Notes under the pieces: generated by a model
Database searches by the model: none
Told to the model about the DNA's origin: nothing
Seen by the model: the letters and a program-made list of their open reading frames with translations, nothing else
Translations under genes and position numbers: made by a program
DNA from: Mycobacteriales bacterium
GTDB lineage: Bacteria > Actinomycetota > Actinomycetes > DATLTS01
Direction: 5' to 3'
DNA length: 64,000 nucleotides
NCBI GenBank assembly: GCA_035533475.1
Contig: DATLTS010000041.1
Location: 1,070 to 65,069 of the forward strand
In this document: one piece after another, positions 33,925 to 33,942 of the stretch
How the letters are laid out: the number at the start of each line of letters is the position of its first letter
How positions within the stretch are numbered: position 1 is the stretch's first letter

Positions 33925-33942
33925 TTGTGAATCCGTTCACGA
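33925..33942. promoter_or_regulatory. Rex operator-like palindrome upstream of the reductase-nuo transcription unit
   Basis: ttgtgaatccgttcacga against the Rex consensus TTGTGAAnnnnTTCACAA (17/18 match), 29 nt upstream of the reductase start codon. Confidence 0.5.

Follow-up and report, generated by a model that had tools for sequence, protein, structure and literature searches.

A probable Rex operator at the promoter of a geranylgeranyl reductase family gene preceding nuoA-N in an uncultured Mycobacteriales-labelled actinomycete

Gene organization, the operator site and the rex gene

The DNA analysed here is a stretch of 64,000 nucleotides from a Mycobacteriales-labelled bacterium, referred to below as the window. 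On its minus strand, mqnC, an aminofutalosine-deaminase-like amidohydrolase gene, menG, a reductase gene and nuoA to nuoN (17026–32520) follow one another in this order. The gene menG/ubiE (33981–34730, minus strand) encodes a demethylmenaquinone methyltransferase, which scores 369 bits with NF001241 against a cut-off of 327. The reductase gene (32622–33896, minus strand) encodes a geranylgeranyl reductase family flavoprotein of 424 aa, scoring 257 bits with TIGR02032 (cut-off 158.8); its GTG start agrees with the gene caller, and its closest homologues are ~78% identical. The following genes, nuoA (32158–32520, minus strand; NF005922, 200.7 bits against a cut-off of 155) and the contiguous or overlapping nuoB to nuoN (17026–32140, minus strand), encode the NADH:quinone oxidoreductase, complex I. 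Specifically, NuoB, C, E, F, G, H, I, J, L, M and N all gave matches and NuoD was matched by Pfam PF00346, while no confirmation of nuoK was obtained at the threshold applied.

The M. tuberculosis protein MenJ (Rv0561c) is a menaquinone reductase according to a passage of PMC5936774 that cites Upadhyay et al. 2015. MenJ and the window reductase are both geranylgeranyl-reductase-family flavoproteins encoded next to menG. They differ in that the window protein scores only 235.5 bits with the MenJ equivalog model (NCBIfam NF045655), whose cut-off is 700, its gene abuts nuoA, and the organism possesses mqnC of the futalosine pathway. Given the location of the gene between menG and nuoA and the function of M. 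tuberculosis MenJ, the protein is probably a MenJ-like reductase that saturates the menaquinone side chain.

Upstream of these genes, positions 37000–60000 of the minus strand form a dense respiratory and cofactor supercluster, after which come the reductase and nuoA-N. It includes rex-hemACDB, a class III aminotransferase gene (hemL-like), and genes for ResB, a cytochrome c assembly protein, UbiD, a flavoprotein (UbiX-like) and a CofH/MqnE-like radical SAM protein, as well as mqnC and menG. The long minus-strand open reading frames at 37688–38536, 43160–44839, 14813–16207 and 15910–16923 matched nothing in Pfam or NCBIfam at the thresholds applied, and some of them may be spurious, given that the DNA is 68% GC.

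The 84-bp gap between the menG stop codon (33981) and the reductase GTG (33896) contains an 18-mer, TTGTGAATCCGTTCACGA, at 33925–33942, which reads TCGTGAACGGATTCACAA on the coding (minus) strand and is termed ROP1 below. It lies 38 nt downstream of the menG stop codon and has the form by which we defined a Rex operator, the 18-bp inverted repeat TTGTGAA-N4-TTCACAA. Against the Streptomyces Rex consensus used for scoring, TTGTGAANNNNTTCACAA (PMC5355995), ROP1 matches 13 of the 14 specified bases, with a single mismatch. The preliminary description had placed this 18-mer correctly; its count of 17 matches out of 18 holds when the Ns are included, and its distance of 29 nt to the reductase start is right, with 28 nt intervening. 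Across the whole window, two sites have at most one mismatch, against 0.00 expected from 100 dinucleotide shuffles. Allowing up to three mismatches returns the same two sites only (0.26 expected), since none occurs at two or three mismatches and the next three sites have four. A chance match at ROP1 can be excluded.

The second site lies at rex itself. The rex gene (58979–59671, minus strand), located 26 kb from ROP1, encodes a redox-sensing repressor with both domains of the family (PF06971 and PF02629). The protein matches the Thermus Rex structures 2dt5 and 1xcb at E = 3e-47, and its matches to solved Thermus, Thermotoga and Bacillus structures range from E = 3e-47 to 4e-43. Both the recognition-helix motif VRKDLSY and the glycine-rich NADH loop GVGNLG are conserved. 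The operator at rex, ROP2 (59731–59748; coding strand TTGTGCATCTGTTCACAA), lies ~60 nt upstream of the gene, with TAACCT (59720–59725) 5 nt downstream of it. Downstream of rex come hemA, hemC, hemD (fused to a methylase domain) and hemB (54164–58982, minus strand), assigned by Pfam matches, so that rex-hemACDB spans 54164–59671. This arrangement is the one published for Streptomyces, in which the S. avermitilis rex operator, TTGTGCACGCGTTCACAA, was footprinted at -39 to -17 (PMC5355995), and ROP2 shares with that operator both its layout and its mismatched base. A second site at rex, together with the two Rex domains of the product, thus places the repressor and its autoregulatory site within one window.

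Conservation of the site and its position at the reductase promoter

To see how the site is placed in relatives, a one-genome-per-species scan with an alignment of reductase homologues gave 80 loci, and exact-protein look-ups added 3; the three further look-ups of reductase loci all have the adjacent layout, defined as a reductase directly upstream of nuoA with a gap of 52–377 bp. This layout occurs in 27 loci including the window, among them Frankia, Parafrankia, Sporichthyaceae, Jiangellaceae, Phytohabitans, Actinoallomurus and many metagenome-assembled genomes. An operator with at most two mismatches precedes the reductase in 25 of these 27 loci and precedes nuoA in none of them. The window follows the same pattern: a search of 32521–32621, before nuoA, for weaker Rex sites or half-sites found none, the best match there having 7 of 14 positions mismatched and lacking any GTGAA or TTCAC half-site, which bears out the earlier statement that the 100 bp before nuoA hold no comparable site. 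The two exceptions are a locus (L077) with just 41 nt of contig left upstream of the reductase, and a Frankiaceae metagenome-assembled genome (L007, ~3880–3960) in which TAGACT is kept and the operator is a degenerate, mis-spaced remnant, TCGTGGATCTCTCACGG. No other Rex site was found in the latter locus, and Rex control may have been lost there.

A promoter and terminator scan of 32000–34800 found nothing. An E. coli-type promoter consensus is ill suited to a 68% GC actinomycete, and TANNNT hexamers were sought by comparison instead. A TANNNT hexamer ends 9–17 nt upstream of the operator in all 22 operator-bearing loci compared, 14 of which have TAGACT, with a background probability of 0.0045. 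In the window, the corresponding predicted -10 element of the reductase promoter is TAGACT at 33953–33958 (minus strand), 10 nt upstream of the intergenic ROP1. While the operator keeps a constant distance from this hexamer, its separation from the start codon varies between 5 and 177 nt across the loci in which the reductase adjoins nuoA, which ties the operator to the promoter and not to the coding sequence. Additionally, in two loci (L018 and L020) just 5 and 16 nt lie between operator and start codon, which would put the transcription start upstream of the operator or inside it. By this geometry, we infer that ROP1 would cover roughly +4 to +21 of the reductase transcript. An upstream -10-like hexamer is no proof of a start site: TAGGAT also precedes the nuoA1 operator of S. 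avermitilis, where the start site has been mapped downstream of the operator (PMC5355995).

The reductase–nuoA spacer and the reach of the operator

The preliminary description took the reductase to be co-transcribed with complex I, which would bring nuoA-N under the same operator. Reductase and nuoA lie on the same strand in the window, separated by a spacer of 101 bp, and this one-strand adjacency is conserved across several families. The spacer carries a second -10-like hexamer, TAGACT at 32563–32568 (minus strand), 42 nt before the nuoA ATG and with no Rex operator nearby. Of 24 loci, 19 (among L004–L020, L026, L031 and L077) have a spacer hexamer of the form TAG[AGC][ACG]T, occurring as cCTAGGATg or cCTAGACTc, although the motif is rare, with 50 occurrences in the 201 kb of these loci. 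In two of them, L005 (~5321–5345) and L020 (~5325–5350), 6 nt separate the end of TAGGAT from the nuoA ATG, a spacing that strongly suggests a leaderless nuoA transcript and a real -10 element at these two loci. A conserved spacer hexamer lacking an operator means that nuoA-N could be transcribed independently of Rex, and the complex I genes probably have an operator-less promoter of their own. A CCCGG motif often lies 6–9 nt after the hexamer. A conserved hairpin following the hexamer was also considered and dropped, as RNAalifold on 14 sequences gave no consensus pairs and only CCCGG recurs.

Such a promoter would suit an arrangement in which a real operator gives Rex control over the reductase alone, the reductase transcript ending in the spacer and nuoA-N being expressed solely from the operator-less promoter, outside Rex control. 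Its conservation in 19 of 24 loci and its placement for a leaderless nuoA in two of them speak for this arrangement, as do GC-rich hairpins right after the reductase stop codon in several relatives and the fact that Rex regulon membership differs between lineages. Three observations count against it. Firstly, the window spacer contains no terminator-like site in our scan, from which terminators without U-tracts, common in actinomycetes, would escape, and it folds no better than shuffled sequences (z = -0.5, -0.02 and -1.2), so read-through is not visibly blocked. Secondly, the adjacency of reductase and nuoA on one strand has been kept in several families. Thirdly, where this adjacency is broken, the operator is found at nuoA and the reductase promoter is without it.

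The last point comes from the Streptomycetaceae loci (L021–L083; Streptomyces, Kitasatospora and Wenjunlia), 46 of which have nuoA within reach. Here the reductase and nuoA are 1.6–3.8 kb apart, split in L023 by an NlpC/P60 gene on the opposite strand (5608–6465). In all 46 loci nuoA is preceded, at ~100 nt, by the operator TTGTGACCTGCTTCACAT or TTGTGAACTGCCTCACAT, the former being the sequence footprinted by Rex in S. avermitilis (PMC5355995), whereas the reductase is preceded by an operator in none. The TAGACT upstream of the reductase is nevertheless kept in 52 of 57 Streptomycetaceae loci, with a best operator match there of 6–7 mismatches; in Streptomyces, cATAGGATgc occurs ~15 nt upstream of the nuoA operator. 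Positions 3900–4000 and 7000–7115 of L023 illustrate the swap, with the reductase TAGACT lacking an operator and the operator standing at nuoA. The operator thus goes with whichever gene heads the nuo unit. This suggests that selection acts on control of nuo, which Rex would reach by read-through in loci where nuoA directly follows the reductase. The relocation argument draws on a comparison of one clade, the Streptomycetaceae, with all other loci, in essence a single evolutionary contrast.

Together, these observations make control of the reductase alone rather unlikely in our estimation. Read-through Rex control of nuoA-N from the reductase promoter is plausible, and we lean slightly towards it. 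The earlier proposal of co-transcription thus holds in part: strand, spacer and the Streptomycetaceae operator at nuoA agree with it, while the conserved -10-like hexamer in the spacer and the nearly single evolutionary event behind the contrast temper it.

Identity of the regulator and the redox circuit

In 22 aligned sites of the adjacent layout, 12 of the 14 specified positions are invariant and the central 4 nt are free to vary. Invariant half-sites around a free spacer are the pattern expected of a protein-binding site, not of an RNA stem. The two remaining positions are position 2, which is C in 20 of the 22 sites, and position 17, which is A or G. The lone deviation of ROP1 from the consensus (window position 33941, coding-strand position 2; TCGTGAA for TTGTGAA, in the promoter-proximal half-site) is thus itself kept across families, where it may adjust the affinity or result from a constraint that the start-site region imposes. 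The S. avermitilis atpI operator, TTGTGATACGGTTCACGA, was footprinted despite a CACGA mismatch (PMC5355995); it carries the same single deviation as ROP1 (…TTCACGA = TCGTGAA) but lies between -35 and -10 and belongs to a different operon from the window site.

The conserved positions also bear on which protein would bind the palindrome. ROP1 contains a core, CGTGA-N6-TCACA, with one mismatch to the TGTGA-N6-TCACA that actinobacterial CRP/GlxR proteins recognise, and these proteins regulate respiratory genes, so that a CRP/GlxR-family regulator might bind instead of, or besides, Rex. We regard this as improbable, because conservation among the ROP1 orthologues is not confined to that core: the invariant positions 1, 7, 12 and 18 (T, A, T and A) agree with the Rex consensus and lie outside it, the central four positions are free, and the T of the left TGTGA is precisely the position occupied by C in 20 of 22 sites. 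Moreover, the window encodes a Rex protein with a matching autoregulatory site, and Rex footprints have been obtained on the orthologous nuoA1 site of Streptomyces. That the repeat works as an RNA hairpin in the reductase 5' leader, or is a functionless chance palindrome, is scarcely credible. A short hairpin can form from it in the predicted leader, but this leader is no more stably folded than shuffled sequences (z = -1.04), the arms in the 22 orthologues are conserved in sequence rather than covarying, an Rfam scan of 31500–35000 at E <= 1 returned nothing, with no known riboswitch or leader, and 0.00 such sites are expected per window by chance.

The near-perfect consensus match, the cognate rex gene with its own operator in the same window, the conservation in 25 of 27 loci and the footprinted Streptomyces equivalents strongly support the Rex operator identity put forward in the preliminary description. 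On this comparative evidence, ROP1 is very likely a true Rex operator through which the reductase is controlled.

In S. coelicolor and S. avermitilis, nuoA-N, cydABCD, atp and rex-hem are established targets of Rex repression, as stated in passages of PMC5355995 and of PMC8063818, the latter citing Brekasis & Paget 2003, and nuoA1-N1 is derepressed in an S. avermitilis rex mutant (PMC5355995). The Streptomyces nuoA1-N1 or nuoA-N system shares with the window the repressor family, the 18-bp consensus, the complex I target and the autoregulated rex-hem operon. It differs in the position of the operator, which in Streptomyces lies directly upstream of nuoA, at -42 to -16 of the mapped start, whereas in the window it lies upstream of the preceding reductase and downstream of the predicted -10 element; the putative nuoA-proximal promoter of the window, unlike Streptomyces nuoA, has no operator. 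A closer parallel in geometry is the S. avermitilis cydA1B1CD operon, footprinted by Rex at -3 to +25 (PMC5355995). Its operator lies across or after the start site, the same geometry of repression as predicted for ROP1, but the target operon is another one and an extra half-site is present at the cydA1 promoter, which was not seen at ROP1. The window therefore presents a further instance of the known Rex respiratory circuit, differing in the placement of the operator on the reductase promoter.

In this family, the Rex dimer binds its operator at a low NADH/NAD+ ratio and NADH releases it (PMC5355995). At a low ratio, a Rex dimer at 33925–33942 would prevent RNA polymerase from forming an open complex at the TAGACT promoter or from escaping it. 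A rise in NADH, such as upon oxygen limitation, would detach Rex, now NADH-bound, from the DNA and let the promoter fire. The resulting transcript would encode the reductase, leading to probable saturation of the isoprenoid tail of menaquinone, the expected electron acceptor of complex I. It would probably continue through the 101-bp spacer into nuoA-N, and this read-through would add a redox-responsive component to the output of a constitutive nuoA-proximal promoter. Through ROP2, Rex would also repress rex-hemACDB. Taken as a whole, an operator for the window-encoded Rex at the reductase promoter, with likely read-through to nuoA-N and autoregulation of rex-hem, is a likely explanation of the data and the best we can offer.

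A more general reading is tentative and may well prove too broad. Outside the Streptomycetaceae, actinomycete Rex control of complex I might run through the promoter of a MenJ-like reductase, menaquinone side-chain saturation would be a conserved and previously undescribed member of the Rex regulon, and the operator would have been exchanged between the TAGACT promoter of the reductase and the TAGGAT promoter of nuoA when an NlpC/P60 gene split the unit. A full-text literature search found no paper linking Rex to a geranylgeranyl reductase; published Rex regulon reconstructions may already list the site.

The finding does not overturn current understanding. It extends the Rex circuit to an uncultured Mycobacteriales-labelled lineage, to Frankia-like and to many other actinomycetes, in which the first gene under the operator is a menaquinone-type reductase and not nuoA. 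The operator swap in the Streptomycetaceae would be a tidy example of a regulon preserved when gene order changes. If the more general reading is true, the NADH/NAD+ poise would be coupled to quinone-pool chemistry as well as to the amount of NADH dehydrogenase; if read-through is confirmed, cells would adjust complex I, and also how far its quinone substrate is saturated, to redox poise.
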